A DNA stretch of 64,000 nucleotides from positions 332,615 to 396,614 of the forward strand of contig NIVC01000975.1 of the NCBI GenBank assembly GCA_002269645.1, written 5' to 3'. This document shows, one piece after another, positions 6,921 to 64,000 of this stretch. The translations under genes and the position numbers were made by a program. The notes beneath the pieces were generated by a model. That model was not told where the DNA came from. It searched no databases and saw nothing but the letters and a program-made list of their open reading frames with translations. This DNA comes from Macrostomum lignano (taxonomy: Eukaryota). Positions within the stretch are counted from its first letter, which is position 1. Each line of letters opens with the position of its first letter.

Positions 6921-8006
6921 AAATTGATCAAAGCAGTTTGACTGCATGTCTCTCAGCAACAAGGCGGGAAGGCTTCCAAATGCAACAGACGCGCTGAGTC
7001 ACCCCAGCTAAACAGAGGCCCTCATGTCCCTCAATACCTCTGCAGCCATCGCAGCTATAGGGGGGTTGGTGTTAATCCGGTTTCCATAGCAACAAGCCAC
7101 ACGCACCCTCGGCTGCCTAGGCTGCAGTTACATCACATTGGAGAAAAATAGAAACGAACAAAAACCTGCCCATTTAGCTGCGTCATCTCTTCTCTCCGAC
7201 TCTGCATGAGTTGAGCAGCTTCAGCAAGAGAAATAAAAGCCATCACCAGCGAGATGTGCGCAGCAGCTGCCGTTCCAGAGGGGGCAGAGGGTGGGGGGGG
7301 GGCAGACAGCACTGGGCCATGAACGGGCGTGGCTTCGCGCTACTCAGGTGAAATACGCTTCTAAAAGAAGGGGAAGAAAGAAAGAGAGACTATTTAGAGG
7401 CAATGCAAGAACAAGCCCCAGCCAGCCCCTCACCCCGCCCACAGCAGCAACCCCCACCTCCTCCCAGAGTTGCCAGTGGCAACCAGTCCGAGTGTTTACC
7501 TGTTGCCAGGGCAGCCAGATAGTCCGCCAAGAGGGTGCTGGGCGGAGCTCAGCCTCTGCTGGTTGGCTGCGGCGTTGCGCGCCAACCTCCGCCCTCTTTA
7601 CTGTCAGTTTATAGCTGGCCGGCCAACCTGCATGAGCTCCCCAGCCTTGCTCTGGCCTGGACGGCTCAAGACTCAAACCTCTCTCTCTCTCTCTCTCTCT
7701 CTCGACTCGCATACTGCTGAATTGTTGTGTTGTGAGCCCGGCGGGTCCTTCGCGTCACCCCCACACCGAGCCTGTCAACAAACGCGCCCCCCCTCACGAG
7801 TTTATTAAACTTGGCCACAAGCTTGGCAGATTTGACTCTCGGAGAGCATTAGAGTGCGGGCCCGCAAAGAGACAACGCAAACAGAGTCGGGCTGGCTTTG
7901 AGCCTTGTTTGAGCTCTCTGCTCAGTAGTTTTACGACGCTGAGAATTGTTGCTTTTAAGAAAGCCTTTTTTAAAAAAGCTCTCTTTTAAACCCGACTCAA
8001 TACCGA

Positions 8007-11267: not shown

Positions 11268-12646
11268 ATCCTAACCGCGATCCGACTGAGGATGAGCCCA
11301 AAGCTTCAAATCAGGAAGATCACGAAGAGAACCGAGACGAGGAGGCGACTGCACAGTCAGCGGAGGCCGCGGCTGAACCGCCGATCGGCCGCCGGCGGGC
11401 CAGCAGGAAAGCGCCGCCGAGGCGGGCGGCTCCGCTGCTCCCGGACGATCCGGACGACGGGAGAAACACGCCTCAGTCGCCGACACCGACGGCCAAACGA
11501 CTCCGGCTGATGATTAACGGTGAAACGGCAGCCGAGGAGGCGGAGAAGCCACTTTGCTTCCGCTGCTGCCAGGCAGTGTCCGACGGTGTCCAGTGCCCGG
11601 CCTGTCCCCGGCACTACCATCGCCCGTGCTGGCCGGACCGCCGCCGGACAGCCTGTCCGGAGTGCGAGGCTCTGCTGGAGTCCGAGGCCGCTCAACTGGG
11701 CGAGGCGGACAGCCCGGAGGAGGCGCGGAGAAGGCTGGATCGCCTGAGCGACACTCTGACGGCGGTCGCGGACTCGCTGGCCGGGGAAGTCGACAACCGG
11801 GCGGACCTGCTGGAGGACGGCGAGGACGCCGACTGTCCGTCCAGTCTGTCGGCGCTGCGCAGGAAGACCGCCAGCAGAGGCTTCGCCACCGAGGCCGCCT
11901 TCCTGGCTGACCTGCGCCTGCTCTGCCACCGCCGGCTGCAGCGGGCCGGCGGCAAGGCAGCCGACGTCATTGAAGAGAATCGCCGCCTGCTGGACCGGGC
12001 GGCCGAGTTGCTGCGAGCTCCTGGCGACCGGCCGAGCTCCAGTCAGCCTGCAGTCTGCAAGGAGACAGCGGCCATCTGGCTGGAGGCGGTGAAAGCCGAC
12101 GCCATCAAGACATTCGCCGCCGCGGTGGAGTCTTACCTGGCCGAGCGGAAGCCGCAGCAGGTGGCAGCAGTCGCAGACTCGCAGGCGAGGCAGTCAGCCA
12201 GCCAACTCAGCCAGAAGCTGATTGTGCAGCGGCGCCAGCACGCGGCCGAGATGGCCCGCCTGCAGTTCCTGCACCAGCTGCAGGCCAGCGAGCTGGAGCA
12301 CAACCACCGCCTGGCCATGTGCGAACTGCGGGCCGCCTTTGACATCGAGAAGCAGAACGTGCTGAGCGCCACCTGCCAGGCGTTCGAGACCGACTCGAGA
12401 CGCCAGCTGGAGGAGGTGAAGCGGAAACAGTGGTGCGCGTTCTGCAGCAAGGAGGCGTTCTTTTACTGCTGCTGGAACACGTCCTACTGCGACGCCAAGT
12501 GCCAGCAGAGGCACTGGCCGCAGCACATGGCCACCTGCTCGCAGGCGCAGGGTGGCGGAGCAGCCGCTGCTGCCGCCGCTGCCGCAGCCGCCGCCGCTGC
12601 CGCCTCTGGGGGAAATTTTCACCCCCAACTGGTAGCGCACAGGTGA
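11268..12646 (+). CDS. ZMYND8: ZMYND8/RACK7-like chromatin reader, main and terminal exon (PHD finger, degenerate bromodomain, coiled coil, MYND finger)
   Basis: MYND KQWCAFCSKEAFFYCCWNTSYCDAKCQQRHWPQHMATC; PHD CFRC...CPAC...HRPC...CPEC; bromo-like LSALRRK...FATEAAFLADLRLL. The frame is open back to acceptor CTCCCAG| at 11267, upstream of the ATG at 11510. Confidence 0.85.
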
Positions 12647-30177: not shown

Positions 30178-31359
30178 TCAAGCTGCTCCCATCTGATAAA
30201 CCAGGTAGGCGCCCAGGGCAGTCAGCAGCGAGATCCAGGCCAGGTCGCGCAGACGAACGACAGGCGTTGGAATCGGCTTGAAGGCGGCTTCAGCAGCATC
30301 GACGCCCGCAGCTGCTGCCCTCTTGTCGTCGGCAGCTTCGTCTTCCTCATTGTACAGTGGAAATGGAACGCCGCCGCCGCCACCGCCGCTAAGCCTGTGC
30401 TGGCAGCTCAGCCAGGTGGTCCTCTGCCTGTCCAGGTTACCCCGCAACAGACTATAAGCGTTATCGTTTATTGCTGAAGAATGATTGCTGCCGCCGCTGC
30501 TACTAGAAGAAGATTCGTCATCAGAGTCGCCGGCCTCCGCGAAGCTGTTATTAGCCATGCCGAATTGTCGCCTGTCGGCCTCGTCGATGCTAAACGACAA
30601 ACTGTCGGCCCGATCGACTCCGTTAGCCAGTATCGCCCGGCCGCCCATGACAACGGCCTGGTAGCAGAACCGCAGCTGGTCCGGCGTCTGCACCAGGCCC
30701 ATGCGGTCGCAGCGGAGGCGCCGGATCTCGCCGGGCAGGTCAACTCCGTAGAGGCTGCCACGACGGGCGATCAAAGCCAGGCAGACGTCTATGACTGCCA
30801 GGCTGCCTGTCCGGCCAATCCCCGCCGAGCAGTGGACAACCGGCGGCCTGTCCGGGTCAGACAGGAGGCCCGAACGGCGGACAGCCATCAGGAAGTTCAG
30901 GAAAGCGCCCGGAGTCTGCGGCACCCCGAAATCCGGCCAAGTCAAGTACTGATAGTGCAGCAGGTCTCGAACTGCGGACGCCGGCTCCGGATCGCTGGTT
31001 TTATTGCTTAGCAACGACAACCGGAAGCCGCGAACAATGTAATAGCCAAATGATTCGGAAGAGACCAGCTCGACTCGCAGGCCAACGTCCGGACAATCGA
31101 CTCGTTTCGTTCGCTCGTCCGGAAAATACGGATGACATTTGAGGGCGCCTTTTTCAAATACTCGATTGAGCATGACGACTCCGCGACTGCGCAGCTGCCA
31201 CACCATCAGCCAGAAGTGGCCGACCGTGGCCGGCAGAGGGCCCTGGGCCATGGCGAACACCCGGCCGGCGTGCTCGGCTCGAACTATGCTGGCATTGATG
31301 TAATCCCCGCTCAGGCCCAGGCTGCTGGCGTGCGACCGGCTGATCGGGGAGAGCCGCAC
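30178..31359 (-). CDS. PTPN1: Non-receptor protein tyrosine phosphatase (PTP1B/TC-PTP-like), catalytic and terminal exon
   Basis: DYINAS, QGPLPATVGHFWLMVW, KCHPYFP, WPDFGVP, VHCSAGIGRTG, RMGLVQTPDQLRF; hydrophobic tail LLTALGAYLVY; acceptor CTCTGTAG|. Confidence 0.95.
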   Translation of the reverse strand: MRLSPISRSHASSLGLSGDYINASIVRAEHAGRVFAMAQGPLPATVGHFWLMVWQLRSRGVVMLNRVFEKGALKCHPYFPDERTKRVDCPDVGLRVELVSSESFGYYIVRGFRLSLLSNKTSDPEPASAVRDLLHYQYLTWPDFGVPQTPGAFLNFLMAVRRSGLLSDPDRPPVVHCSAGIGRTGSLAVIDVCLALIARRGSLYGVDLPGEIRRLRCDRMGLVQTPDQLRFCYQAVVMGGRAILANGVDRADSLSFSIDEADRRQFGMANNSFAEAGDSDDESSSSSSGGSNHSSAINDNAYSLLRGNLDRQRTTWLSCQHRLSGGGGGGVPFPLYNEEDEAADDKRAAAAGVDAAEAAFKPIPTPVVRLRDLAWISLLTALGAYLVYQMGAA

Positions 31360-48442: not shown

Positions 48443-49198
48443 TTAACAAATTATCGTATTCAGACTTAAATTCCGCTTGAACTTCGCCCAATCCTCGCCG
48501 TTCTCGATCTCCGACTCGACCTGAGCGTCGGTGAACAGCAGCAGGCGGCACAGCTTCGACCTCCTGTTGTACAGCGCGCGTCTGCAGTTTTTGTCTCGGC
48601 CAGCCGCCGCTACGCAGCTCACAGAGCTCGGCATCCCAGTCAGGTCTTTGTAGCAGTATTCGGTGCTCGGCTTGTAGCTGGTCCGCTTGAACTCCACTCG
48701 CCTCCAGGCGGCCGGCTGCAGCTTTGCGGCAGGTCGAGTCGCCGGCCGGAACTCGCACAGGTAGCCGCGAGGCCTCTTGCACAGCGAATTGGCGAGGCTG
48801 TCAGGATCAGCTCTGCTCAACATTCTCAAGCAGTCTTGCACTTCTGTGCTCGACTGGCCCACAAGCCAGAGCGAGTCGTCCTCTGGCAGGTCGCCGTTGT
48901 CGTTGACTCGCTGCCAGCCCGACCTGCTGCTGCTTCGCTCATCGGCCAGGTCGGACACGCCGATCCACAGGTCCGCACCCGAGGCCAGCCTCTTGATGGA
49001 GCTGAGGCTGTTCGCCAGCTCGCCTCCGAGCGCTGCGCACTGCAGGTTGGCCTCGCACCAAGAGAAGCTTTGGTTGGCGTTCCTGAGCAGGCACGAGTCG
49101 GAGAACGGACTCGGGCACAGCGGCTTAGCCTGGGCTGAGGTTAGAAGCAGAAGCAGCAACACGGTCTGAGCTGTGGAGTCCATCTGTAGGTCCCCCAT
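48443..49198 (-). CDS. Secreted C-type lectin domain plus PAN/apple-like domain protein, intronless
   Basis: Signal-like VLLLLLLTSAQA; SWCEANLQCAALGGELA, LWIGVSD, DCL...C...GYLCEF; C-terminal SCVAAAGRDKNC...YN...CRL. Confidence 0.8.
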   Translation of the reverse strand: MGDLQMDSTAQTVLLLLLLTSAQAKPLCPSPFSDSCLLRNANQSFSWCEANLQCAALGGELANSLSSIKRLASGADLWIGVSDLADERSSSRSGWQRVNDNGDLPEDDSLWLVGQSSTEVQDCLRMLSRADPDSLANSLCKRPRGYLCEFRPATRPAAKLQPAAWRRVEFKRTSYKPSTEYCYKDLTGMPSSVSCVAAAGRDKNCRRALYNRRSKLCRLLLFTDAQVESEIENGEDWAKFKRNLSLNTIIC

Positions 49199-49763
49199 CT
49201 GCTTTCATCCTCCGTGCCTGAGCTTCCTATTTATGCAATTAAACACAATAAGCATTACTATGGCGAATCGAGAGACTGATTGGGACCTGACTACTTTGAG
49301 ATTCAGAAAATTGATCAGCGTTTGCGTAGGGATTAGCGGAGGACTTCTGTTCGCTTTGCATCAGAGTCACGAATGAAAAAAACCTCACCAGCAGCTGTGA
49401 GCGAAGCAAACTAAAAACGAAAGTCAAACAGGGGATCCTGGGAGCAGTAGCTCAAACATTTTCTTGGATGTGCGCCCTTAGTTCCGGTTCAGTAAATCTT
49501 TTTTCAGCTGCAAGCGAGTGTCGAAAAGCCAAAGTGTCTACTTAAAGCTCTACATAGTGCTTTTGCAGACTAGCTGAAAAAATGCCACCTACTTCTGGCA
49601 CTTTGGCAACGAGAAGTTCGGACTCACCCCGAACTCTGGTCACAGACAAAATGCACCAGAAGTGATCGAATTTCTTTGACAATACCCCTTGTACGAGTAT
49701 GAGCTGCCCATGCTGAGAGAACTCGCAGTCACAACCACAGACTCATTTAAAGAAAAGAAAAAA

Positions 49764-49856: not shown

Positions 49857-49943
49857 AACCCTTATTGTCGTAATCAATATCTGAATTCTTCATGAAGTTT
49901 AGCGGAAGCGAAATTTATTTAATAAAATAAAATAATAACACAG

Positions 49944-50774
49944 TGTCATGAATGTGTTATTATGACTGTGTGTACTTTGCTACTTTGCTACGCCGGGCCA
50001 GTCGGCCGTCCTCTCCCCCCTCCTTAGATATTTTCTGACTCACCCACCTGCACTTCTGCGCGTGCGTACCCCTCCCCTCCCTGCCTAGACCTTTTCTGTT
50101 GAGTCAACCCCCCATGCTCTGCGTGCGACCCCCCCCCCTGTGCGACCCCGCCCCATTATTTTGTTAGCTTTGCTGCCCCGCCCCTGTTTGTGATTGGCTG
50201 CCAGTCCCAGTCTGCCGTGCTGCGCCCCGGCGATTGGCTGGTACAGCTCATGCGTTGCCTTGGCTGATGTCTAAGCCCCCTTTTCTGCCTTTATCCCGCG
50301 CCCTCGACCCCCAGTTTGCTGCCTATTTATTCGGCCCCTTGAGACCCCATTCTCGTCGTCTTCGTGGCTCCTCGGCGATTGTGCCAGCGTTGGTTGCTGA
50401 ATTGCTATTCCTCGCAGAATTGCTAGACAAATATATAAGTAAAGAATATCGAGATCACCACTGCTCTGACGGCTCTGTTTCTTGTACGACTGAAATCGCG
50501 GCTGGTAAGCCTTCCAATTTGTACGTCATTTGGGTCTGCATCTGTACTAGGCACCTTAGAGGGATTAAGTGCGTCGTACGCCGGTCCCACCCCAAGCAGC
50601 TCTGCGTCGTACGCGAGTCTGTAGGCTGTCGTGCGTCGTACGCTCGAGCAGCCTAGTCCCGACGGACACCGCGTCGTACGCGTGTCAGTGGAGGACCGCA
50701 GCCAGGGTCAGTACACGAACCCGGGTCTGGGAAAGGGGCACGAAAGGACCGAGCCCTTGAGCCCCATCATCACA
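49944..50774 (+). repeat. 5' LTR
   Basis: TGTCATGAAT...CATCATCACA. I found only one extra C and one T/G substitution in the 3' LTR. Confidence 0.97.
50432..50510 (+). promoter_or_regulatory. LTR TATA box (TATATAA, 50432-50438) and strong 5' splice donor CTG|GTAAGC (50505)
   Basis: Consensus matches and plausible spacing; function is inferred. Confidence 0.5.
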
Positions 50775-50777
50775 AAT

Positions 50778-50795
50778 TGGCATCCTTGGTGGGAC
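50778..50795 (+). promoter_or_regulatory. Primer-binding site (TGGCATCCTTGGTGGGAC); priming tRNA not identified, possibly Leu
   Basis: TGG begins 3 nt after the 5' LTR end. Confidence 0.7.
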
Positions 50796-50882: not shown

Positions 50883-52007
50883 ATGGATGCTGGAGGTGCT
50901 GCTGGAGGTGCTGCTGGAGGTGCGGCTGGAGGTGCGGCTGGAGGTGCGGCTGGAGGTGCGGCTGGAGGTGCGGCTGGAGGTGCGGCTGGAGGTGCGGCTG
51001 GAGGTGCGGCTGGAGGTGCTGCTGGAGGTGCTGCTGGAGCCTTTGGTGTTAATGATCTGGTCGCCGCCTTGACTGCCCAGATTCAGCAGAACATGCAGCA
51101 AGCGGGTGCCCTCAGGATTCAGAGGCCGGTGAAGTATGCTCCAGGAATGAATTTCGTGAAGTGGTTGAGGCTCTTCGTAGCTTATTGCGATGCCATGCAG
51201 ATTCCGATGCAGAATCGGCGCGCTCAGTTGCTCAGCAACCTAGACTTCAGCACCTTCCAAGTTGTTGACAACATGAACCTTGGGGACGACTTGCAGTTCG
51301 AAGAATTTACCCAGGCCTTGAGGGATAGGTTCACTATGCACCGTACCGTCGTCGACTACCGCACAGAACTGAGCAATAGAGAGCAGAGTGAGAAGGAGTC
51401 GGTAGAAGATTTCTCTGAAGCTGTGATTGAGTTGGTCGCAAACGCCTTTCCTGATGCGCCTGCCGATGTGCGCGATGATCTTGCGAAAGAGCGATTTATG
51501 CGAGGCGTCCGTGCGGGGGTGGCTGTGCGGGAGCGACTGTACATGAGCCAGCCGGAGACGTTAGCGGACGCAATGCGTCTGGTGCATCAGCTGGAAGCGG
51601 CGGTTAGGGCAAGTCATGGTCCACCAGGTCAGGTATCGAAAAGAACCGTTTGTGCTGTTACGACCGAGACCAGAAAGGAGGCTTCCGAAAGAAGTGAGGT
51701 CGAGATGCTTCGAAAACAGCTGGCGGCCATGGAGATGCGAATGAAAGAGATGGAGGAGCGGAGGTCTGAAGAAGCGGCAGAGCCGACCCCGGCGAGTCGG
51801 AAGGCTGTGCAGTGTTTTTCGTGTCGAGAGTGGGGCCATATCTCATCAAAGTGTCCGAAGAAGACCAGTCAGAAGAGTGAAAACGGGAAATCGCCAGTAC
51901 GATGTCACAAGTGCAACGGTGAAGGCCACCTATCCTTCAAGTGTCCGAAGTCGGGAAACGGGCCGAGGGGACCGACCGGGGAGAGTCGGGACCCTGCCAG
52001 GAAGTGA
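50883..52007 (+). CDS. gag: Gag with an N-terminal Gly/Ala repeat and two CCHC zinc knuckles
   Basis: CFSCREWGHISSKC and CHKCNGEGHLSFKC; retrotransposon capsid-like QSEKESVEDF...ERFMRG. Confidence 0.92.
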   Translation: MDAGGAAGGAAGGAAGGAAGGAAGGAAGGAAGGAAGGAAGGAAGGAAGGAAGAFGVNDLVAALTAQIQQNMQQAGALRIQRPVKYAPGMNFVKWLRLFVAYCDAMQIPMQNRRAQLLSNLDFSTFQVVDNMNLGDDLQFEEFTQALRDRFTMHRTVVDYRTELSNREQSEKESVEDFSEAVIELVANAFPDAPADVRDDLAKERFMRGVRAGVAVRERLYMSQPETLADAMRLVHQLEAAVRASHGPPGQVSKRTVCAVTTETRKEASERSEVEMLRKQLAAMEMRMKEMEERRSEEAAEPTPASRKAVQCFSCREWGHISSKCPKKTSQKSENGKSPVRCHKCNGEGHLSFKCPKSGNGPRGPTGESRDPARK

Positions 52008-52142
52008 AGTCTCCCAGGAGCGAGGAACCGGGGTTGCTCACTAACCTGTAAATAAATCCAAGTGCGTCTCTGGTGATGGAATTCAAAGAGCAACCTGGTT
52101 CATGAGGCGTGTTCGTCGGTATCAACGGAGCCTCTGACAGTT

Positions 52143-53058
52143 TTTATTTCCGGTGCGGTTTCCGGCAAGCCAGTGGCTCTGCTGTTAGACAGTGGTGCGA
52201 GTGTGTCAGTGCTGAGCTGTGATGTTTTCCTGAGGCTGCCGCAAGAGGTGAGGGAGAGACTGACTGCAATGGACGGTTCCCTTTCAACGGCCAATGGAGG
52301 TGCGATGAGGATGAGAGGCTGCATTGTGCTGGACGTGGAGATTGGCGGCGAGCGGTGGTCAGCGAATTTCTTCGTAGTGGACGGATTACGTTATGATGTC
52401 ATTCTCGGGTCCGAATTTTTCAAACAGCATCGTTGCGTCATCAACTATTCAGAGTTTGTCTTTCGAGTGGGCGATGTTAGAGTTCCGATACGGCAGAAAG
52501 GCGAGCTGCCCGTGGTGTGTCGAATCAAAGCCGAGACAACGGTATTTCTGGAACCGGCGCAAGAAGTGATCATGCCAGCCAGGGTAGAGAAAAAGGGCGC
52601 AAGAAACTGCGGATCGGTCGGCATAACGGAAGAAAAGCCGGTGAAGGCCGCTGAGAAGGATTTGGCGCTGGCTCGAGCTCTGGTAGCGCCCGGCGTGGAT
52701 GGACGGCTGCCGATGAGATTGCTGAATACGTCCAGTTGTAGGAAGAGGGTCAAGAAAGGAGAGACGATTGGCTGGTTTATTCCTTTGGAACCGAACGGAG
52801 GTATCAACGTGGTGCGCTTGGACGACGACGTAGAGGCCAAGAATGAAGCGGAGGCATGGGACCCGATCGAAGAATTCCGCGAGTGGGGTTCGTGTGGCCT
52901 GTCGGAGGAGGAGGAAGCCGACTTCAGGGAGCTGATTTCCCAACATCGGGCTGTCTTTGCTAAGGACTCCAAGGATCTCGGCGGTACGACGGTGATGAAG
53001 CACGAGATCGACACTGGAGATGCCAGGCCTGTGAAAGAGGCGGCGAGGCGGATTCCCC
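52143..53058 (+). CDS. pol: Pol part 1: aspartic protease and linker; frameshifts into RT at about 53055
   Basis: LLDSGASVSVL and DVILGSEF motifs; KHEIDTGDARPVKEAARRIP marks the RT N-terminus. Confidence 0.85.
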
Positions 53059-56000
53059 TTACCTGCGGCAGGAAGTGGACAAGGAGTTGGATGACTTGCT
53101 GGAAGCTGGGAGAATCAGCGAGGTTCAGTCCCCATGGTGCTCTCCGGTGGTGTGCGTGAAAAAGAAGGACGGTTCCCTGAGGTTCTGTTGTGACTACCGG
53201 AAACTGAATGAAGTGACCAAGAAGGATGCAGTGCCGTTGCCCAGGACAGATGACCTGTTGGAGAGCCTAGGCGGTGCCAAGATTTTTTCGACCATGGACA
53301 TGCAGTCGGGATACTGGCAGATGGCGGTGGAACCCAGCGACAGACTGAAGACGGCCTTTGGCGTTTCACACCGGGTACAGCAGTACGCCTGGAACGTTAT
53401 GCCATTTGGATTGACAAATGCACCGGCTTCATTCAGCCGGCTAATGAATGTGGTGTTGGGGAAGTTGTGCTGGAAGACGTGTTTGGTGTATCTGGACGAC
53501 CTGCTAGTGTGGTCACGAACGGTAGAAGAGCACCTGGAACGGTTGCAAACGGTTTTTCGACGGTTGCGAGCAGCGAACATCAAACTGAAGCCGAAGAAGT
53601 GCGCATTCCTGCTGAAGTCAGTGACCTTCCTGGGACACGTAGTGTCAGCTGATGGGATCGCCACGAGTCCAGAAAAGATTGCCGAAATTCGTGACTGGCC
53701 AACTCCGAGGAATGTGAAGGAAGTAAGGTCATTCCTGGGACTGTGCGGGTATTACCGGCAATTCATCGCAGATTTTTCCCGCATTGCTGAGCCGATGCTG
53801 CGACGGACCCGACATGATTGCCCGTGGAGCTGGGATGAGGAGTGTCAAGCCGCATTCGAGGCCCTGAAGGAAAGGTTGCAGGGATCTGAGGTCATGGCGT
53901 TTCCAAACTTTGCGGAGGACGCTGGAGAATTCGTTTTAGACACAGACGGTAGCACAAAAGAAGGAATTGGCGCTGTGCTTTCGCAGGTGCAGAAAGATGG
54001 GAGTGAGAAGGTAATAGCTTACGGAAGCAGGACGTTGTCGCGAGAAGAACGGAATTACTGCACGACACGAGTCGAGTTGCTGGCCGTGGTGTTTTTCGTA
54101 CAGAAGTTTCGTTATTACCTGATGGGGCGAGAGTTTCTAGTGCGCACCGATCACAGCAGCTTGAAGTGGCTGCATTCGCTGCGGGACGTAGAAGGACAAC
54201 TGGCCAGATGGCTGGAACTCTTGGCTCCGTACAGGTATCGCATCGAACATCGTCCGGGAGTGAAACATCAACACGCGGACGCTCTCTCCAGGAAGCCACG
54301 TCGGCGCCATCAAGGAAGCGAGAGTTGTCCTGGATGTGCACAAGAGCAGATCGGCGTGAACGCGTTGGGATTGCAGAAGTGGACCTCGGAGGAGATCAGA
54401 GAGAGCCAGAAGATGGACAGCGACATTCGTCAGGCGATGGAGCTGCTGGCTCACAGCGACGGAGAGATAACCGAAGAGCATTTGCGGCGCATATCACCGA
54501 CGGCAAGGAGGATTGTCGAAAGACGTCGTGACCTTGAGGTGTCGGACAGTGAGGTGTTGCTGTGTCATACGGCCAGTAGACGTCAGCCGCAAGTGGTGTT
54601 GCCACGGAATATGCTGAGAGCGGTGCTGGAAGAAGCTCATGGTGGACGGAGTGGAGGGCACGTTGGGATTTTCAAGACCAAGGAGAAGGTGCGGCAATCG
54701 TTTTGGAGGCCGGGACTTGGCCGCGAGGTCGAAGAGCACGTAAAAGCCTGTTTGGACTGCACCAAGGCCAAAGCTGGCAAGAAACCAATTGCACCGATGG
54801 AGCCGATTCCGAGTTCAAGCCCATTCGATATCGTGATGACGGACGTCATCGGGCCGCTGCCACGGAGCAAGAAAGGAAACTTCTACATCCTCACGGTGCA
54901 AGATGCGTTCTCAAAGTGGCCTGACGCTTATGCCATCCGGAACCAGAAGGCGGCAACGATCGCAAGGGTGCTATTCGAACGCTGGATTGCCAATCACGGG
55001 TGCCCCCGGGTACTTCACTCAGACCAAGGAAGGAACTTTGAGTCGGGGATCGTCAGGAAGCTGTGCGAGCTGTTGGGTGTGAAGAAGACCAGGACGAGCG
55101 CCTACCACCCGAGTGGCAACGGACAGGTGGAACGATTTAATGGGTTCCTGAAGAACAGTTTGCGCACGTATCTGGTACAGAAGGGTCAGAACGCCTGGGA
55201 GGAGTACCTGCCAAGTGCATTGATGGCTTATCGATCGACGGTCCAGGCGTCCACCGGTTACACGCCCTACTACATGCTGCATGGTCAGGAGATGCCACTG
55301 GGATTCGAACCAGAGGACCTTAGGCGAAAGACGGACAGCTGTCCCTTGTTTGTGCAAGAGATCAAGCAGAACCTGCTTCATGCCCATGAACGCATTCGAG
55401 AAGGACGCGAGACGGTTCAGCGACGGCAGAAAATGAATTACGATCGGAAAGTGAAGGGCAAAGCGATTCAGAAGGGCGACTCTGTCTTGCTGTACTATCC
55501 GTGCTTGGAGATGGGAGAGAAAAGCAAGTTCCATATCAACTGGCGCGGCCCAGTGAAGGTCCTGGAGAAGCTGTCAGATGCGTTGTACCGAGTGCAGGAT
55601 CCGACACAGCCGCAGAAGACCAAGGTGGTGCACTTCAACAATCTCCGGCCGGTTCAGGTTCAGACGGAGGCGGCAGACGGTCAAGAGACTAGAGAGGAAA
55701 TTGGGAGGGCCAGTTCGGGAAAAACCAGGCCGCGACGTGATAATTCCGCTGCTGGACGAAGCCGAAGGCAGAGAGTGCAACGGGGCGAGACCCAGAGGTG
55801 GACCGCAGCGCGAGGGCCGCAGGACCAGGAATCCGAGCAGGAAGATGAAGAGTTTGAAGATCTTCAGCTGCGGTTTCAAGATCCAAGAGATCACGCTCCA
55901 CCGGACACCCGAAATCTGGCCGAAGACTGTGAGCCCGGACCTGAGCGTCGAGAAGCAGACGATGACGAAGAAGAGCACGACGATGAGTCGCGGTACGACG

Positions 56001-56146
56001 AGGAGCAGGACGAAGAGGATGAGGCAGAGCCGAACGACGCCAACGTACCCGAGCAGGAAGTGAGGACGGCACAGGAGGAAGCAGGGCGACCAAGACGTCT
56101 GCGGCGACCGCCAGATCGGTTTGGGGTCCCGGTGTACTACTACTGA
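53059..56146 (+). CDS. pol: Pol part 2: reverse transcriptase, RNase H, integrase (HHCC, DDE, GPY/F) with an acidic tail
   Basis: SPW...LRFCCDYRKLN, MPFGL, YLDD, FLG, LDTDGS...GIGAVLSQ, TDH, H...H...CLDC, VQDAFSKW, SDQGRNFES, NGQVERFN, WRGP. Confidence 0.96.
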
Positions 56147-56245
56147 AGAAGGGTCCGGTGTACGGCGCTTGGATAGCCAAAGGGGAAGGGAGGTACATGT
56201 CGTGCGTGTCTCATTGCTCATCGGAGTTAGGCCGGACTGTTACAG

Positions 56246-57226
56246 ATGGCGGACCTCTACGAGTGTCTTGGAGTGCAGCTGTGGGCGTCTGCGGCACAGA
56301 TTCGGAAAGCGTTCTACGGTCGAGCACGCGAACTGCACCCTGACAAGAGCGCAACAGAGGAGACGCGGAAGAGATTCCAGGAGTGCGAAGAGGCGTACCG
56401 AATACTGTCGTGTCCGTTCCTTAGAAAGCTGTACGATATCTTTGGAAATGCTGTTCGTGACCGGGATGAGATGCTTCGGCTCGCAGAAGGGATGTTAGAG
56501 GATGAAGACATGCCCGACGATCTCCGAGAAGAGATAGAAAGACTACAAGAGAGCGACCGATTAGCTGAGGAGGCGTACGAGAGAGAACAGGCGAGGAGGG
56601 ATGAGGAGCACGTCAAGATGGAGGCAAGTGAGGAGGCCTCAGACGATGAGCAGGACGAAGAGATGAACGAGGCGAGTGAGACACTGCCGGAGGAGTACGA
56701 GGTCGAGAAGGTCTTAGGAGTCACGGAGCGAGGAGCGGAGTATCTGCTGCAGTGGGCCGGTGTAGAGGAGCTTGAGACGTCATGGGAAGCGGAGGAAGAT
56801 TGTGCCGGATGTAGAAACCTGATTGAAGAATATCTGCAGAGAGCGTACCGGCTTCAGACAAGACCGTGCCGACCAGTGACCGTCGCGGAACTGGAGAACG
56901 TAGGACCCAGTCGGAAGAAACTGCACCAGGCAATGCGGAAGGGCGACCCGTGGGGCATCTTTGAGGTGCTGCTAGCCCTGAAGGGGAAGTGCGCCACTGC
57001 CTTGGTGGATTTCAAGGAATTCGGTCCGGAGTTGATGCTGCAAATCCTGGGCTACTTGGAGCGAGACGGTCGCAAGTATCCGGGGCACGGAGTTCGTCGG
57101 TGGAGTCGCCAAGCGTGTCAAGCTGTCTACATGTCGGTGATGGTGGTGTTCCCGCTGTTCGACCTGCGACGCCAGGGTTTGGTCCTGGGTGCCCTCCGTA
57201 GGCTGTGGGATTCGTGCTCTGACTGA
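56246..57226 (+). CDS. Retrotransposon ORF3: DnaJ (J) domain, acidic coiled linker, chromodomain and unknown C-terminal domain (326 aa)
   Basis: DLYECLGV...IRKAFYGRARELHPDK...FQECEEAYRILS...RKLYDIFG (J domain, about 56252-56446); EEYEVEKVL...EYLLQWAG...TSWEAEEDC...LIEEY (chromodomain, about 56690-56833). Confidence 0.92.
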   Translation: MADLYECLGVQLWASAAQIRKAFYGRARELHPDKSATEETRKRFQECEEAYRILSCPFLRKLYDIFGNAVRDRDEMLRLAEGMLEDEDMPDDLREEIERLQESDRLAEEAYEREQARRDEEHVKMEASEEASDDEQDEEMNEASETLPEEYEVEKVLGVTERGAEYLLQWAGVEELETSWEAEEDCAGCRNLIEEYLQRAYRLQTRPCRPVTVAELENVGPSRKKLHQAMRKGDPWGIFEVLLALKGKCATALVDFKEFGPELMLQILGYLERDGRKYPGHGVRRWSRQACQAVYMSVMVVFPLFDLRRQGLVLGALRRLWDSCSD

Positions 57227-57788: not shown

Positions 57789-57800
57789 AGGGGACGGGAG
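57789..57800 (+). promoter_or_regulatory. Polypurine tract (AGGGGACGGGAG)
   Basis: Immediately precedes the 3' LTR. Confidence 0.85.
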
Positions 57801-58632
57801 TGTCATGAATGTGTTATTATGACTGTGTGTACTTTGCTACTTTGCTACGCCGGGCCAGTCGGCCGTCCTCTCCCCCCTCCTTAGATATTTTCTGACTCAC
57901 CCACCTGCACTTCTGCGCGTGCGTACCCCTCCCCTCCCTGCCTAGACCTTTTCTGTTGAGTCAACCCCCCATGCTCTGCGTGCGACCCCCCCCCCTGTGC
58001 GACCCCGCCCCATTATTTTGTTAGCTTTGCTGCCCCGCCCCTGTTTGTGATTGGCTGCCAGTCCCAGTCTGCCGTGCTGCGCCCCGGCGATTGGCTGGTA
58101 CAGCTCATGCGTTGCCTTGGCTGATGTCTAAGCCCCCTTTTCTGCCTTTATCCCGCGCCCTCGACCCCCAGTTTGCTGCCTATTTATTCGGCCCCCTTGA
58201 GACCCCATTCTCGTCGTCTTCGTGGCTCCTCGGCGATTGTGCCAGCGTTGGTTGCTGAATTGCTATTCCTCGCAGAATTGCTAGACAAATATATAAGTAA
58301 AGAATATCGAGATCACCACTGCTCTGACGGCGCTGTTTCTTGTACGACTGAAATCGCGGCTGGTAAGCCTTCCAATTTGTACGTCATTTGGGTCTGCATC
58401 TGTACTAGGCACCTTAGAGGGATTAAGTGCGTCGTACGCCGGTCCCACCCCAAGCAGCTCTGCGTCGTACGCGAGTCTGTAGGCTGTCGTGCGTCGTACG
58501 CTCGAGCAGCCTAGTCCCGACGGACACCGCGTCGTACGCGTGTCAGTGGAGGACCGCAGCCAGGGTCAGTACACGAACCCGGGTCTGGGAAAGGGGCACG
58601 AAAGGACCGAGCCCTTGAGCCCCATCATCACA
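57801..58632 (+). repeat. 3' LTR
   Basis: Near-identical to 49944-50774. Confidence 0.97.
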
Positions 58633-59300
58633 GTATTGTTTAAAAAAATAGCAAGCACAAAATTGAGAGCCAAACATGGTGCAGCTATAATGTAAAATTA
58701 CAGCGTACCTGGATATAAAAACTGTTTGGGTCCAAAGCGCTCTAGGCCTAGGTTGGGCAATGTGCGTGCCTATGGCGTACACCAGAGTCTGAGTAAAAAT
58801 ATAGAACAAAGCCAAACAGGCTAAGCCAAAGCCAAAGCCAAAGCCAAACAGGCCAAACAGCCATGCAGTCCAACACAGCAGTGAAAAAAATCCGCGACAT
58901 AAAAAACTTTTCAGTAGTGTGAACGCGCATCATTGCTATGATTTGTTAGGATCCATGAGTCAATATCGTTCGATAAGATGTACATGTTTAAATTTACAAT
59001 CAAAGTTTGTTCGACATCTAAACAGCTGGTTTATCAGTGCAAAATTAGACTTGAATAATAATAAAAATTTTATTATGAGTTTAATACACAAATAAATTAT
59101 AAAAGTTGTTTTCTTTTATAGTGCATAAAATTCAATTATTATAATAATTAACGAAGTTTATATAGAATTTCTATATAAGGATTTCTAGAGTATGCACGTA
59201 CACTAAATAAGAAGTATTTTATAGTGAAAGTTCCCAGAAAAAATGTTGAGCCTCACTCAGTTCTGCGTTCACACACTGCAGTCACAGACCAAAAAGCAAA

Positions 59301-59489: not shown

Positions 59490-59549
59490 CTGCAATGCGA
59501 TCATGGGATACTGGTTGGAGTTCTGCGATGGAATCTTCACGGCGTTTTC

Positions 59550-60403
59550 TCTATGGTGTGATCTCTGTGGTGTGATCTCTATGGTGTGATCTCTGTGGTG
59601 TGATCTCTATGGTGTGATCTCTGTGGTGTGATCTCTATGGTGTGATCTCTGTGGTGTGATCTCTATGGTGTGATCTCTGTGGTGTGATCTCTATGGTGTG
59701 ATCTCTGTGGTGTGATCTCTATGGTGTGATCTCTGTGGTGTGATCTCTATGGTGTGATCTCTGTGGTGTGATCTCTATGGTGTGATCTCTGTGGTGTGAT
59801 CTCTATGGTGTGATCTCTGTGGTGTGATCTCTATGGTGTGATCTCTATGGTGTGATCTCTGTGGTGTGATCTCTATGGTGTGATCTCTATGGTGTGATCT
59901 CTATGGTGTGATCTCTATGGTGTGATCTCTATGGTGTGATCTCTATGGTGTAATCAGTGTGATCTCTATGGTGTGATCTCTATGGTGTGATCTCTATGGT
60001 GTAATCAGTGTGATCTCTACGGTGTGATCCATATGGTGTAATCAGTGTGATCTCTACGGTGTGATCCATATGGTGTAATCAGTGTGATCTCTACGGTGTG
60101 ATCCATATGGTGTGATGTCCATGATGTGATCGCTATGGTGTAATCTCTATGGTGCGATCTCTATGGTGTGATCTCAATGGTGTGATCTCTGTGGTGTGGT
60201 CTCTATGGTGTGATCTCTATGGTGTGATCTCTATGGTGTAATCAGTGTGATCTCTATGGTGTAATCAGTGTGATCTCTATGGTGTGATCTCTATGGTGTG
60301 ATCTCTATGGTGTGATCTCTATGATGTGATCTCTATGGTGTGATCTCTATGGTGTGATCTCTATGGTGTGATCTCTATGGTGTGATCTCTATGGTGTGAT
60401 CTC
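59550..60403. repeat. 14-bp minisatellite (CTATGGTGTGATCT) in the VWA5A-like intron
   Basis: Tandem units visible directly. Confidence 0.97.
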
Positions 60404-60679
60404 TCGCTGGGATAGTTTCTGTTGTGTGTGGCTTGTGTGTACTTATAGTATCGCTTTCTATCGACTCCGTAGTTTCGTGTACTTGATGCAGTGTACACTG
60501 CCGGCACTCTACCGGGTATGTACATTGGTGTTTCGATAATATATATTGGCTTGATTACCCAGACTCTGGGTGTACGAGTTTTCGTAGGTTTCAACACATG
60601 ACTTGGCTTTATCATAAACAGTTTCGGTTATGGCACAATTTTAAATTTCATTTGAGTAGCCAATCAGGATACTGCTTAC

Positions 60680-63117
60680 AACTCCCTTCGGTGCGGACTT
60701 TGCGATCTCAACCAGGCTGATGCCCAGAAGGTCGGCAATGCTGTCGCTCGCGTCCCAGCGACCATCGAATTGCTGGTTCCTGCGATCAGCATGACTGGAT
60801 CGCTGCTGACATCGCGAGCTGTTGAAGCGCAAGAAAAAATCGCTTTCAGTTCACGCTTATTCTTGGCAGCGCGGCTGTCATCCGGCAGTGATGAAAATGC
60901 AAGATATTCCGTTTCCAAATCGTAACAATTTTCATCCGATTCATTTATAGCGGTTGCGTAATAGCCATCCACAGCTGCCATATCCATCCTGCAAGAACTC
61001 AGTGCAAGCCTGGGCTGCTCTTCCTCGCATCGAAGTCGTCTAGAGAACGTCGAAGCTTCCTTTTTCTTACCAGCACCTGCCTTTTCCTTCTTGCTACCTG
61101 CACTTCTACTAAACAGAGAGGAAAGCGATGGAAGTCCGAACGACATGCCCTTCTTTTTCGGCTTACTCCGCGCATGCGAGTAGAACTGGTGGTCCTGGTC
61201 GGGCATCATGGACCCAACCGCACCCTCATCGTCCCAGCAGTCTTCAATAGACGGATCGTAGCAATTCGGCGATGCGGCTAGTGGCCTTTCCCCCTGCCGC
61301 TTCAGCCTTCGCTCCTCCCGCTTCAGCTCTTCATTGGCCACAGAAACTGGCCTCTTTGTCGTCCTGTCGATGCCAACAAAGGCGGTGTACGCGGAGGCCA
61401 AGTTGGTGGCCAGGCTCAGTTCGATGATGCTCCTTGTGTGCTCTCCGCCACTGTTCGAGTCGCTCCACTCCTTTAACTGCAGCCGAGCGGCCGCTCTGCG
61501 CAGCAGCTGCGACTCCTTAGCAGATTCTCCATCGTGGACGCACTCGATCTCAAAGTCTCTACCGGCAACGGAGAACTTCGCTACAGCCCGAATCGTCATT
61601 GAATTCGCGTCTGGAGACAACAGCAGAAATCGACTCAGCCGAGCTGTTATCGGAACAGCTCCACCAGCTAGTTGCGGATCGGTTGGCACGGTGCCAAGAA
61701 GCACTGACTTGCCGTCAAGTGTGGTTGCGTCAACTCTCAGGTTCTCTACAGCTGCCGACTGAGCAGTTTTCAGCTGAGCGACCACGGCGCTCCTCAGCTG
61801 CTCGGTGACTCCGTCACGGACAAAGTCCGCGCGACCTCCGCCGACTCGAGCAACGCCTTTCACCAGCGCCGTAGAAGCTCCGTGTCCGATCCCGATGGCC
61901 GACAGTCGGCAATCGGAGCCAACAGCCCCGCACTTGCTCAGAACGAGGTCCTTCACTTGATCGGTGTTTGAGACCTCACCATCAGTCAGTAAGAAGAGCA
62001 TCAGCTGACAAGTCGGGTCCGATTGTCAAACGACCATCTCAGCGCAGGCAAAATCTCTGTGCCACCCATGTCCGCTCGCATGGCCTCCTGCAGTCGAACA
62101 GCCTCAGCCAGGGACTGTTGAGAGTAATTCTGGGCTGCTGCTGAACAGCTGGGTGAAGCTTGAGCCGAAGCTGACGACATTGAACTTGCAGCCGGAAGGA
62201 AGTGATTTGAGGAACAACAGGAGCGCCTCCTGTGCTGAACGAATGTTCCGGCCGCTCATCGAGCCGCTCCTGTCGACAACGATGATGAACTCCTTCTGCG
62301 CCGAGTCCCTTGCCTGGGACTCGTCTAGGAATGCCGTGAACTGCGCGATCTCCTGCCGAAGAAAGGCGGATTCGGACCCGGCGGAGCCAGTCTCCCTTGT
62401 CATCACCGCGCCTGAGACGGGCGGCTCAAACTCGGCCACGAGCTCAATATCACAGTCGCTGCCCAGCTGCTCCACCTCGAATTCAGATCGCTCTGACAGC
62501 CACTTCAGCTGTCCTTGGTTGCACTTGACATTGCGCAAGTTTGGAAGGCCGTTCACCTTCCCCCGAAGTTTGAGTCCCGACAGCCATGGTTGAGCAGCGG
62601 TCTGCGAAGGTCCCGAACTCGCGAACTTGTCAAGCCGACTCTCCTCAGGCTCGTATCGCGGCACGAGAACCCTTGGGATTGTGAGGCTCACTTTATCTAT
62701 GCTCGGCGTCTCCAGCTCGACCACGCTGCTCATTTCGATTTTCACCTTGGCCTTGGCAGCCACATTGCCGAGGTAGCACTCCATGAGGTCGGCCGAGCCG
62801 TCCACCTCGGAGGCGAGCGCGGCCGAGTAGCCCGCATCGACAGCCGCTCTGTAGGCGGCCTTGGACTCGGTCTTCTCGCGGCACTCGCACTCGATGGTGC
62901 GATCGTTCAACTCGGCAACCAGTCGGTACACCGAGGCCGACTCGTCAACAGGAAACTTGAACCGAACGTTGCTCAGGGTATCGGAGCTTCGATTGTGGTA
63001 CAGGAGCGAGTAGGTCACGTCAGCGTTCCAACCGATGATGCTGACCTGCACCGAGGACTCGACCAGGCTAAGGGCCGCCGATTTGCTTGCGTTGCCGTCG
63101 TAACAAAGCCAGTCCAT
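60680..63117 (-). CDS. VWA5A: VWA5A/BCSC-1-like (VIT plus vWA) main exon, with three apparent single-base frameshifts
   Basis: VIT: FKFPVDESASVYRL...GNV. vWA MIDAS DRSGSMSG, FNVVSFGS, ADMGGTEI, LLTDGEV, IGIGHGAS; QQFDGRW. ATG at 63117; donor GTT|GTAAGC after 60680. Confidence 0.88.
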
Positions 63118-64000
63118 CTTGAGCTCTGCAGGCAAAGAGCCTTGATAGCAAACAGTTGTTGACGAGCGAGAGCGAGAGGTTGGAATAGAGAGGGGGTTGC
63201 AATGTGCTGTATATAATGCCTGCAGGGCTTGTGAGAGGTTTGGGGTGGGCTTTGAGTGTACAGTCAAATATTTTCCTGCCCTTGTCGCAATCTGTCGCTC
63301 TACCGAAGTACTTTTGCTACACGCATGGTCGTATGGGTGAGAAACATAAATGTCATTCATCCCTGTAAAACTGTGCATTGCAACTGCGCTCATGAAAACG
63401 TGAACAGGCCTTTGCAATTTGCAACACACATCATCTAAACTTGGGTATGCAATTCTATTTTCCCAAACTAGCAGCGTACGCAAGTTTCTATTTTTAGATA
63501 CATGTGTCGCGGCCTTGAAACTGAACGTACGGACTGTCACTGTGATGCCAAAACATCCGAAAAAACGTCCGCCGAACATCCGTATTAAACATCCACAGCA
63601 GGGACAACTAAAACCTAGTTTTAGTTGTCCCTGATCCACAGCGTGGCTATATACGCGTGTTAAAACGACCTTTTTACTAGAACATCCGTATTAAAACCAA
63701 GGACCACTAGGAACACTTCGTTATATAGGACGTAACACTCTCGATTCGTGTAAAAATAGTTGAAGGCCGATTTTCGTTCTCGTATACATTAGTGATCGAT
63801 AGACGAATTGCATGATTTTCAACATAATGTGCTGTTTGCAGAAGCCTAGGGCTATTAATTCCCGAAATTTTGGTTATTTACTGTTTTTTACATTACTTAT
63901 GACTGGGCTAGGCCTATAACTAAAGACTAATAGGTCTAATGTTTATCGACTGGAAACCTAAAGCTAATGTAATAAATACTTTATAGGCCTATACCTTTTT

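Follow-up and report, generated by a model that had tools for sequence, protein, structure and literature searches.

Background

We know of only a few transposon-encoded counter-defence proteins, and to our knowledge Hsp70 has been tied to transposon activation only from the side of the host. As for accessory genes, a long terminal repeat (LTR) element of orchids reportedly carries a third open reading frame (ORF3) with an AlkB-type domain. The non-env ORF3s of bdelloid rotifers are typically made from spliced messages (PMC5408684), the best case of counter-defence is VANC, a family-specific anti-silencing protein of plant DNA transposons (PMC6719617), and class C J proteins, such as auxilin and the SV40 T antigen (the latter of which requires its J domain), bring Hsp70 to single clients and dismantle complexes (PMC13254874). 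As for Macrostomum lignano, 40 Gmr1/Osvaldo families have been catalogued, and some LTR families are heat-induced, with 16 heat-responsive families (PMC12801592). Here we describe a young Ty3/Gypsy element, of a recently active group, of M. lignano in a stretch of 64,000 nucleotides (GenBank assembly GCA_002269645.1, contig NIVC01000975.1, positions 332,615 to 396,614 of the forward strand; hereafter, the window, whose own numbering is used), which carries an ORF3 encoding a J-domain protein between the integrase and the polypurine tract (PPT). From the comparisons given below, the product of ORF3 appears to be an Hsp70 co-chaperone that the element encodes for itself. It is modular and contains an unclassified domain, and the form with a chromodomain is one of its variants.

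Results

The protein encoded by ORF3

ORF3 of the window copy consists of the following parts (aa, amino acids; pLDDT, predicted local distance difference test).

56246..57226, + strand, ORF3, 326 aa, open frame
56252..56437, + strand, J domain, aa 3-64, Pfam DnaJ, HPD motif at aa 31-33
56438..56545, + strand, clade-specific extension behind the J domain, about aa 65-100, from the family alignment
56546..56695, + strand, acidic linker, net charge -16 over the most acidic 40 aa
56696..56842, + strand, HP1/Swi6-like chromodomain, aa 151-199, Pfam Chromo, cage Y-W-V
56864..57223, + strand, C-terminal domain, basic five-helix bundle in the predicted structure (pLDDT 86), no known match

The first-pass annotation, which was made from the letters of the window, had placed an intact frame of 326 aa between integrase and PPT, inside near-identical LTRs, and had read in it a J domain with an intact HPD, an acidic linker, an HP1-like chromodomain with two of the three cage aromatics (the third being valine) and an unrecognised C-terminus. 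These readings held: the frame is open, the LTR pair differs at 2 places, and both domains were matched in Pfam above the cut-off (DnaJ at aa 3-64, E = 4.8e-16, 59 bits against a cut-off of 27.8; Chromo at aa 151-199, E = 9.2e-9, 35.5 bits against a cut-off of 25.1). A protein record with 99% identity is named hypothetical protein of Macrostomum lignano. The J-domain profile of ORF3 matched the J domains of DNAJB/DnaJ at E values of about 1e-20; as for its source, many class A/B J domains scored alike, and a quick tree of J domains had 1 starred branch of 17 and is weak. The hallmark of the ORF3 group is the extension behind the J domain together with a C-P-aromatic-x-R motif in helix IV. In the ORF3 proteins scanned with Pfam, neither a zinc finger nor a DnaJ_C domain of class A/B was found, as in class C J proteins, and no HTH_DNAJC9 was matched in any of them. 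A prediction of the whole ORF3 fold from the single sequence was discarded (pLDDT 47). By analogy with known J proteins, ORF3 is likely to be a class C J-domain adaptor, predicted to recruit host Hsp70.

The best matches of the chromodomain among solved structures were Swi6 (E = 1.5e-8), CBX5 and CBX1. Its cage positions are Y151, W170 and V173, that is, two aromatic residues in place of a three-residue aromatic cage; the cage is Y-W-L in the library protein P0003, and a full F-W-F in one sister copy. The chromodomain of the window copy and of one twin is 2 residues shorter than in the 14 other full-length copies translated and than in the contigs of all four runs compared. No chromo shadow domain was matched by Pfam in ORF3, and the C-terminal model is all-helical. 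A membrane span is not likely in any of nine ORF3 proteins (highest 19-residue hydropathy, 0.94-1.56), and Pfam gave DnaJ, Chromo or TatD and no env-type match. As judged by these searches, ORF3 occupies the position of env yet encodes no Env.

Families and exchangeable modules

Weak matches pointed to further Gypsy elements, and seven Gypsy families (12 subfamilies) of the genome were found to carry the ORF3 core at the same place (L numbers are our handles).

F1, window family and its sister L034/L041/L042
F2, L031 and L040
F3, L032/L043 and L045
F4, L033 and L035/L036
F5, L037/L038 and L046
F6, L039
F7, L088/L092

Integrase lies directly upstream of ORF3 in 11 of the 12 subfamilies; none was found in the stretches examined for F4b. 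The core common to the seven families comprises the J domain, the helical extension and the C-terminal domain, which is about 110 aa long; the other families share 26-32% identity with the window family over this core. HPD is kept in eight of nine full-length ORF3 proteins and is lost in F7. Among the matches listed for the C-terminal-domain search, 26 places belong to F2, 20 to F3 and seven to F4; the C-terminal domain of F6 is the most divergent. The chromodomain (Pfam) is limited to F1, its sister and P0003, and parsimony suggests a single gain in F1 as the simplest reading. In F5 and F7, a TatD-like domain is appended to the J and C-terminal core (L092:120-1796; L046, L048, L049, L037 and L038), with Pfam E values of 2e-8 and 2e-7 in F5 and of 4.9e-5, which is below the cut-off, in F7; its aligned histidine metal ligand is absent, and it appears to be catalytically degenerate. 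The combination of J domain and chromodomain, on which the first-pass annotation laid its emphasis, is not the conserved unit; what the seven families have in common is the J domain together with the C-terminal domain of unrecognised type.

Eight further relatives of the integrase were inspected, and one of them (L088) has ORF3 behind it; three more distant families (L089-L091) have none in the 1.8-2.3 kb examined. The families form a polytomy in the integrase tree (L038, L039 and L040 were left out because they were too short). As for recombination, L034 is a mosaic. In gag and the 5' part of pol it shows 92-93% identity with the window family, and it has a deletion of RNase H and integrase; its ORF3 is of the sister type (55-60% identical) and the last 50 codons are window-like again. 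The deletion junction of L034 was also found in a run contig (53804). Because of this mosaic, ORF3 modules are considered to move by recombination.

Three library proteins (P0003, P0017 and P0018) have the same architecture and no close match among the copies listed for the assembly (the best match of P0018 was 47%; P0003 is 75% identical to the window protein), and contig scans for the three gave no genomic locus. The ORF3 group may extend beyond the M. lignano genome. Another library protein with J domain and chromodomain, P0075, was rejected as a relative: it is without the clade motif and the C-terminal domain and groups with the outgroup rows. Tandem repeats were seen at the 5' end of pol and behind ORF3 (L031:1160-1920 and 7303-7797; L032:7211-7638; in L033, near the gag-pol junction); those behind ORF3 in F2 and F3 are suggestive only as regards a VANC-like motif.

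The C-terminal domain

The model of the C-terminal domain (11-row alignment, from which the F6 row was dropped) has five helices and a flexible basic loop (pLDDT 86; predicted template modelling score 0.80). In six complete proteins the domain has a charge of +7 to +16, and the adjoining linker -12 to -19 per 40 aa. The identity of this domain between families is 22-30%, whereas that of integrase is 51-54%. No Pfam family was found for the C-terminal 120 aa of ORF3, and no match was common to more than one of the 11 rows. With Foldseek, no match was obtained at E values of 0.001 or below among solved or viral structures; the best match in a wide structural search (Z 7.8; root-mean-square deviation 2.4; 80 aligned) was to cobalamin-cap helical bundles, within the background of helical bundles, and the matches to sequences of solved structures were designed helical proteins only. 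No usable match was obtained in the Atlas, and a search of the "longer" library returned only the protein of the element itself, which is weak evidence. The model thus points to an unclassified, well-folding, basic helical domain.

Copies and selection

The genome search with the ORF3 protein, in which 123 of 235 candidates were scored, gave at least 137 matches, of which at least 17 cover the whole protein without a stop at 98-100% identity. The search with the chromodomain gave 28 matches at 97-100%, and the other chromodomains of the genome are 35-39% identical. When the end of the 3' LTR was read at 22 loci, 18 different flanks were found; note that raw copy counts overstate insertions, since the assembly is redundant (hidden allotetraploid, PMC12801592). 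Among about 28 copies of the window family, 11 are without a full open frame.

The ratio of nonsynonymous to synonymous substitutions (dN/dS) was estimated by the method of Nei and Gojobori, whose values are rough here, near saturation, and taken from overlapping segments and comparisons; it was 0.10-0.36 in 11 of 13 comparisons between subfamilies (by part, 0.21 for the chromodomain and 0.11-0.29 for the C-terminal domain). In the remaining two comparisons, both of the J region, synonymous sites were saturated (proportion of nonsynonymous differences, 0.27-0.29). Seven within-family pairs gave 0-0.31, and no value was near 1. No close host source of ORF3 was seen in the genome searches with the protein and the chromodomain or in the J-domain tree. 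Because of the 17 or more full-length copies, the 18 flanks among 22 loci and the dN/dS of 0.10-0.36, ORF3 is, as far as the genome data tell, not passive cargo; it is almost certainly a functional gene, every part of which is under purifying selection. The first-pass annotation had proposed an element-encoded J protein, and had named a single copy near-identical to a host gene, neutral or disrupted evolution, and failure of the domain models as outcomes that would speak against it. We found many copies with only distant chromodomains elsewhere in the genome, purifying selection by dN/dS, and both models above their cut-offs, all of which uphold that proposal.

Putative splicing and expression

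The signals considered for the expression of ORF3 are as follows.

50432..50438, + strand, TATA-like box of the LTR; 50475 is the start of a contig from a putative-RNA run
50505..50511, + strand, splice donor of the LTR, with its counterpart at 58363 in the 3' LTR; used in contigs of two runs from two studies
56243..56245, + strand, putative splice acceptor CAG, directly 5' of the ORF3 ATG

The trinucleotide YAG (Y, pyrimidine) stands directly 5' of the ORF3 ATG in five of the 11 subfamilies whose start was read, and not more than 16 nucleotides from the start in 10 of the 11 (F6 has AAG only); chance would give the latter in about 40% of cases each, which makes this count weak, and the argument depends mainly on the five subfamilies with YAG directly at the ATG. 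At 56197, upstream of ORF3, there is an ATG that is out of frame. In the window LTR, the donor motif lies 73 nucleotides behind the TATA-like box; L031, L032 and L034 have similar motifs in their LTR regions. Contigs of two runs (X5 and X7, from two studies and taken as RNA by guess) exit the 3' LTR exactly at the donor. The sequence joined there is a repeat with 38 matches, of which seven of the 21 copies read follow AG; one copy alone has the variant of the loose end, and this copy is preceded by CAG and lies 0.9 kb behind a solo LTR of the window family. Because these contigs join the donor to a repeat copy following CAG, we consider that the LTR donor is used. This solo LTR (L083:2764-3597 and L065; 97% identical) is thus spliced from its donor into the downstream repeat copy in contigs of two runs, giving an LTR-driven chimeric transcript.

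It is probable, from these signals, that ORF3 is made from a spliced subgenomic RNA in which the LTR donor is joined to the acceptor at the start codon. Spliced-leader trans-splicing could take the place of cis-splicing for ORF3; use of the LTR donor favours cis-splicing. In F5 and F5b (L037, L038 and L046), TG lies behind the ORF3 acceptor, and both donor candidates of one F5 LTR (L048:1075 and 1230) follow A, so that the splice could form the ATG, as in env of Drosophila gypsy; note that L037 and L038 have an in-frame methionine about 20 codons upstream of the ORF3 start, which L046 does not have. No canonical heat-shock element (three units, at most one mismatch) was found in the five LTR regions scanned, including the 5' LTR of the window. 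The LTR of the heat-induced Osvaldo family Mlig-id38 (337 bp) is unlike the window LTR (by eye, first 400 columns).

Structure and classification of the element

The other parts of the window copy are as follows.

49944..50774, + strand, 5' LTR, 831 bp, TG...CA ends, 2 differences from the 3' LTR
50778..50795, + strand, primer-binding-site position (position only), TGG-start sequence 3 nucleotides behind the 5' LTR
50883..52007, + strand, gag, 374 aa, two CCHC zinc knuckles, N-terminal AAGG repeat
52077..56146, + strand, pol (protease, reverse transcriptase, RNase H, integrase with p58_C), two overlapping frames in the window copy, broken near 53,050
57789..57800, + strand, PPT, from the sequence
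57801..58632, + strand, 3' LTR, 832 bp, no target-site duplication in the window copy

ORF3 starts 99 bp past the stop of pol (56146) and ends 562 bp short of the PPT. The Pfam matches of pol (RT, RNase H, H2C2, rve and p58_C) follow gag in the Gypsy order of protease, reverse transcriptase, RNase H and integrase; no Chromo match was found in pol with Pfam, as the first-pass annotation had stated for the integrase, and the last 160 aa of pol match nothing. Three features were missed in the first reading, namely the shorter chromodomain described above, the frame change of pol near 53,050 and the lack of a target-site duplication in the window copy (49940-49943 against 58633-58636), which is also lacking in its twin. 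Because contigs of all four runs compared differ from the window near 53,050 and near the gag-pol junction, the breaks in pol are considered to be private to the window copy or assembly errors; pol frames of other copies in the assembly are often interrupted, too. The missing duplication is possibly due to recombination between copies or to the assembly. The 3' flank of the window copy is found on three contigs (L001 and L005 are involved). Among sister copies (13 checked at both ends, 11 parsed), 10 have a 4-bp target-site duplication, two of them being the same insertion. The TG...CA LTRs with PPT, the order of gag and pol domains and the target-site duplication in the family are those of Ty3/Gypsy. 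The element probably belongs to the Gmr1/Osvaldo group, with which the 4-bp duplication and the tRNA-Lys-like primer-binding site of L032 presumably agree.

Several side observations were made. The integrases of the window (56090-56146), L031, L032, L033, L088, L090 and L091 have an acidic tail and an Arg-rich end motif like R-R-P-P-x-R-aromatic, which is present also in families without the J-domain ORF3. In L084 and four contig places, an integrase subfamily with 92-95% identity is interrupted behind the integrase by a long ORF, which by eye resembles the endonuclease of long interspersed nuclear elements; no ORF3 was found in the stretch examined. Very dense minisatellite arrays (periods, 8-41 bp) occupy positions 1-46000 and 59500-60400 of the window. 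Four ORFs in the window we take, by eye, to be of host type: 11510-12646 (+ strand; PHD/MYND-like), 30178-31251 (- strand; tyrosine-phosphatase-like), 48443-49204 (- strand; C-type-lectin-like) and 60676-63690 (- strand; VIT/vWA-like).

Discussion

A candidate mechanism

We propose the following sequence of events. ORF3 would be, with hardly any doubt, an accessory gene under purifying selection, which a Ty3/Gypsy clade of Macrostomum has long kept, and would probably be translated from a subgenomic RNA in which the LTR donor is spliced to the acceptor at the start codon, as for gypsy env. Its J domain would probably recruit and stimulate host Hsp70, with the basic five-helix domain picking the client, as is expected from J-protein biology. 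The client may then be a nuclear nucleoprotein, most likely repressive chromatin that covers copies of the element itself and that Hsp70 would loosen for LTR transcription; this step we put forward with more doubt than confidence. The add-ons would steer the adaptor, the chromodomain to methyl-H3 chromatin in the window family and, in two others, the TatD-like fold, which is catalytically degenerate, to nucleic acid. We favour a chromatin client because both add-ons are chromatin or nucleic-acid folds, because the chromodomain is HP1/Swi6-like and under selection and has a full cage in a sister copy, because a basic domain and an acidic linker are part of the core, and because the core diverges far faster than the integrase. 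Taken as a whole, the chain (a class C J adaptor bringing Hsp70 to a nuclear nucleoprotein, likely the silenced copies of the element itself) is a tentative reading, and beyond Hsp70 recruitment the mechanism is what we infer. More tentative still is the wider proposal that the clade has evolved chaperone-based counter-silencing with a spliced third gene, a novel helical client-binding domain and swapped reader modules.

Several points weigh against this chain. The client, location and activity of ORF3 are all predicted. Five of the seven families are without a chromodomain, and hence nuclear action is only putative for the core; in the window family itself, the cage has just two of three aromatics, and the chromodomain of the window copy is 2 residues short. 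The chromodomain alone gives no family specificity, which selected anti-silencing needs, and the specificity would have to reside in the C-terminal domain. F7 lacks HPD yet has 10 stop-free full-length copies, so that stimulation of Hsp70 would not be needed everywhere, and the members L084-L087 of the clade have no ORF3 behind the integrase in the 1.8-2.3 kb examined. The dN/dS values are rough, as noted above. As for the putative splicing, no joint of the LTR donor to the ORF3 acceptor was found in the run contigs listed (24 loose ends are outside those shown), and these contigs, from runs that are RNA by guess only, show neither strand nor level; a first exon of about 40 nucleotides would be hard to see in them.

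Alternative explanations

The main rival, which we regard as unlikely, is that ORF3 remodels the replication complexes of the element itself: the C-terminal domain would bind Gag, reverse transcriptase or the integrase-cDNA complex, Hsp70 would uncoat the particle or free integrase after strand transfer, and the chromodomain would merely localise the last step. The J and C-terminal core is kept in all seven families whatever the add-on, a self-encoded client would explain selection on a trans-acting gene without sequence specificity, and auxilin acts in such a way on clathrin cages (PMC13254874). On the other hand, the families L089-L091 without ORF3 behind the integrase indicate that the life cycle is not generally dependent on it, and the C-terminal domain (22-30% identity) outpaces the integrase (51-54%), which would suit a conflict with the host better than an unchanging partner within the element. 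In a further rival explanation, ORF3 is a chaperone decoy or saboteur which diverts Hsp70/Hsc70 from Argonaute/Piwi loading or from control of heat-shock factor and thus weakens small-RNA silencing broadly. We consider this improbable: Hsp70 and Hsp83 take part in the biogenesis of PIWI-interacting RNA in Drosophila, where Hsp70 can displace the chaperone-Ago3 complex (Cappucci 2019, via PMC10627563), a phage J protein stabilises sigma32 (PMC13254874), heat induction is known for some LTR families of M. lignano (PMC12801592) and the pseudo-nuclease add-on could bind RNA, but the five LTR regions scanned have no canonical heat-shock element, broad counter-silencing is expected to be costly to the host, the known transposon cases being narrow (PMC6719617), and the selected chromodomain (dN/dS 0.21) points to chromatin.

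Chromatin is also the target if ORF3 is a trans-acting integration tether, that is, if the chromodomain of a chromovirus was split off the integrase, with the C-terminal domain binding the intasome and the chromodomain steering it to heterochromatin. The lack of a chromodomain in the integrase, a few 3' flanks that are tandem repeats, and the MAGGY chromodomain, which binds H3K9me2/3 and targets integration (PMC3350952), are consistent with this; nevertheless, it accounts for one of the seven families only and gives no reason for the conserved HPD, the cage of the window family lacks an aromatic residue, and most of the 40-bp flanks look by eye, without a control, like ordinary AT-rich DNA, so that we give it slightly less credence than the decoy. 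Thus, the chromatin tethering and guided integration in trans of the first-pass annotation are at most a refinement in one lineage, since the chromodomain is restricted to F1, its sister and P0003 and one family is without HPD. Finally, ORF3 might do nothing for the element, being either host sequence that was carried along passively or a chimera of gene prediction. The redundancy of the genome (hidden allotetraploid, PMC12801592), which inflates copy counts, and the 11 of about 28 family copies without a full open frame would fit; pol frames are, however, also often interrupted in the assembly, the dN/dS of 0.10-0.36 contradicts passive carriage, and ORF3 is a single exon with its own splice signals, at the same position in seven families and without a close host source, which makes this explanation very improbable indeed.

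Implications

If the counter-silencing reading is true, ORF3 would be the first transposon-encoded Hsp70 co-chaperone, as far as the literature searched goes. That search, made outside most subscription journals, Repbase and GyDB and judged by titles, term counts and the beginnings of abstracts, found no transposon-encoded J protein; the available main text of the M. lignano LTR paper (PMC12801592) has no occurrence of "DnaJ", "ORF", "chromo" or "Hsp40", and no such domain appears in the available parts of PMC13524379, PMC8775202 and PMC6338049. A clade that keeps its own J protein across families only 26-32% identical would show a direct hijack of Hsp70 by a transposon, comparable to that by polyomaviruses and some phages, and suggests a novel route round host control. 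ORF3 also offers a domain that is unclassified and predicted to fold well, together with variants that form a natural series (with the chromodomain, with the TatD-like fold, with neither, and without HPD). Since transgenesis and reporter tools exist for M. lignano (PMC12801592), the escape of LTR elements from silencing in a stem-cell-rich animal is testable at the level of protein.

Comparison with known systems

Like the DEDDy and GDSL ORF3s of rotifers (PMC5408684), the ORF3 described here is a family-specific accessory frame behind pol, captured from cellular proteins; unlike them, it carries an Hsp70 co-chaperone and an unmatched helical domain with exchangeable add-ons, and DnaJ has no occurrence in the available text of the rotifer and orchid papers. 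With env of Drosophila gypsy (PMC2585583) it shares the place of a third ORF before the PPT and would share subgenomic splicing, which in F5 and F5b may also create the start codon as in gypsy; it differs in that it is without a membrane span or env-type Pfam match and in that its donor belongs to the LTR instead of to gag. ORF3 stands between pol and the 3' LTR as in errantiviruses, and a membrane fusion glycoprotein is lacking. The chromoviruses MAGGY and Tf1 (PMC3350952) are likewise Ty3/Gypsy elements encoding an HP1-like chromodomain, but theirs is at the C-terminus of integrase, whereas the one here forms the middle part of a J protein with an ORF of its own and is restricted to one lineage. 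The element is therefore neither a chromovirus (the chromodomain is not on the integrase) nor an errantivirus (there is no Env).

As in the viral J proteins, the SV40 T antigen and Rki of phage RB43 (PMC13254874), a genetic parasite would use a J domain with HPD to hijack host Hsp70; unlike there, the carrier is an endogenous retrotransposon and the J sequence is closer to cellular class A/B. DNAJC9, a histone co-chaperone (PMC11148058), is also a J protein tied to histones and chromatin, by analogy only, since ORF3 is without HTH_DNAJC9. The likeness to VANC of VANDAL DNA transposons (PMC6719617) is in possible function only, that is, relief of silencing of its own family; no homology was seen, the class of element and the kingdom are different, and the effector proposed here is Hsp70. 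On present comparison, the element thus appears rotifer-like in the position and probable splicing of ORF3; its chemistry resembles that of the viral J proteins and its purpose possibly that of VANC, and it would be a member of none of these systems.

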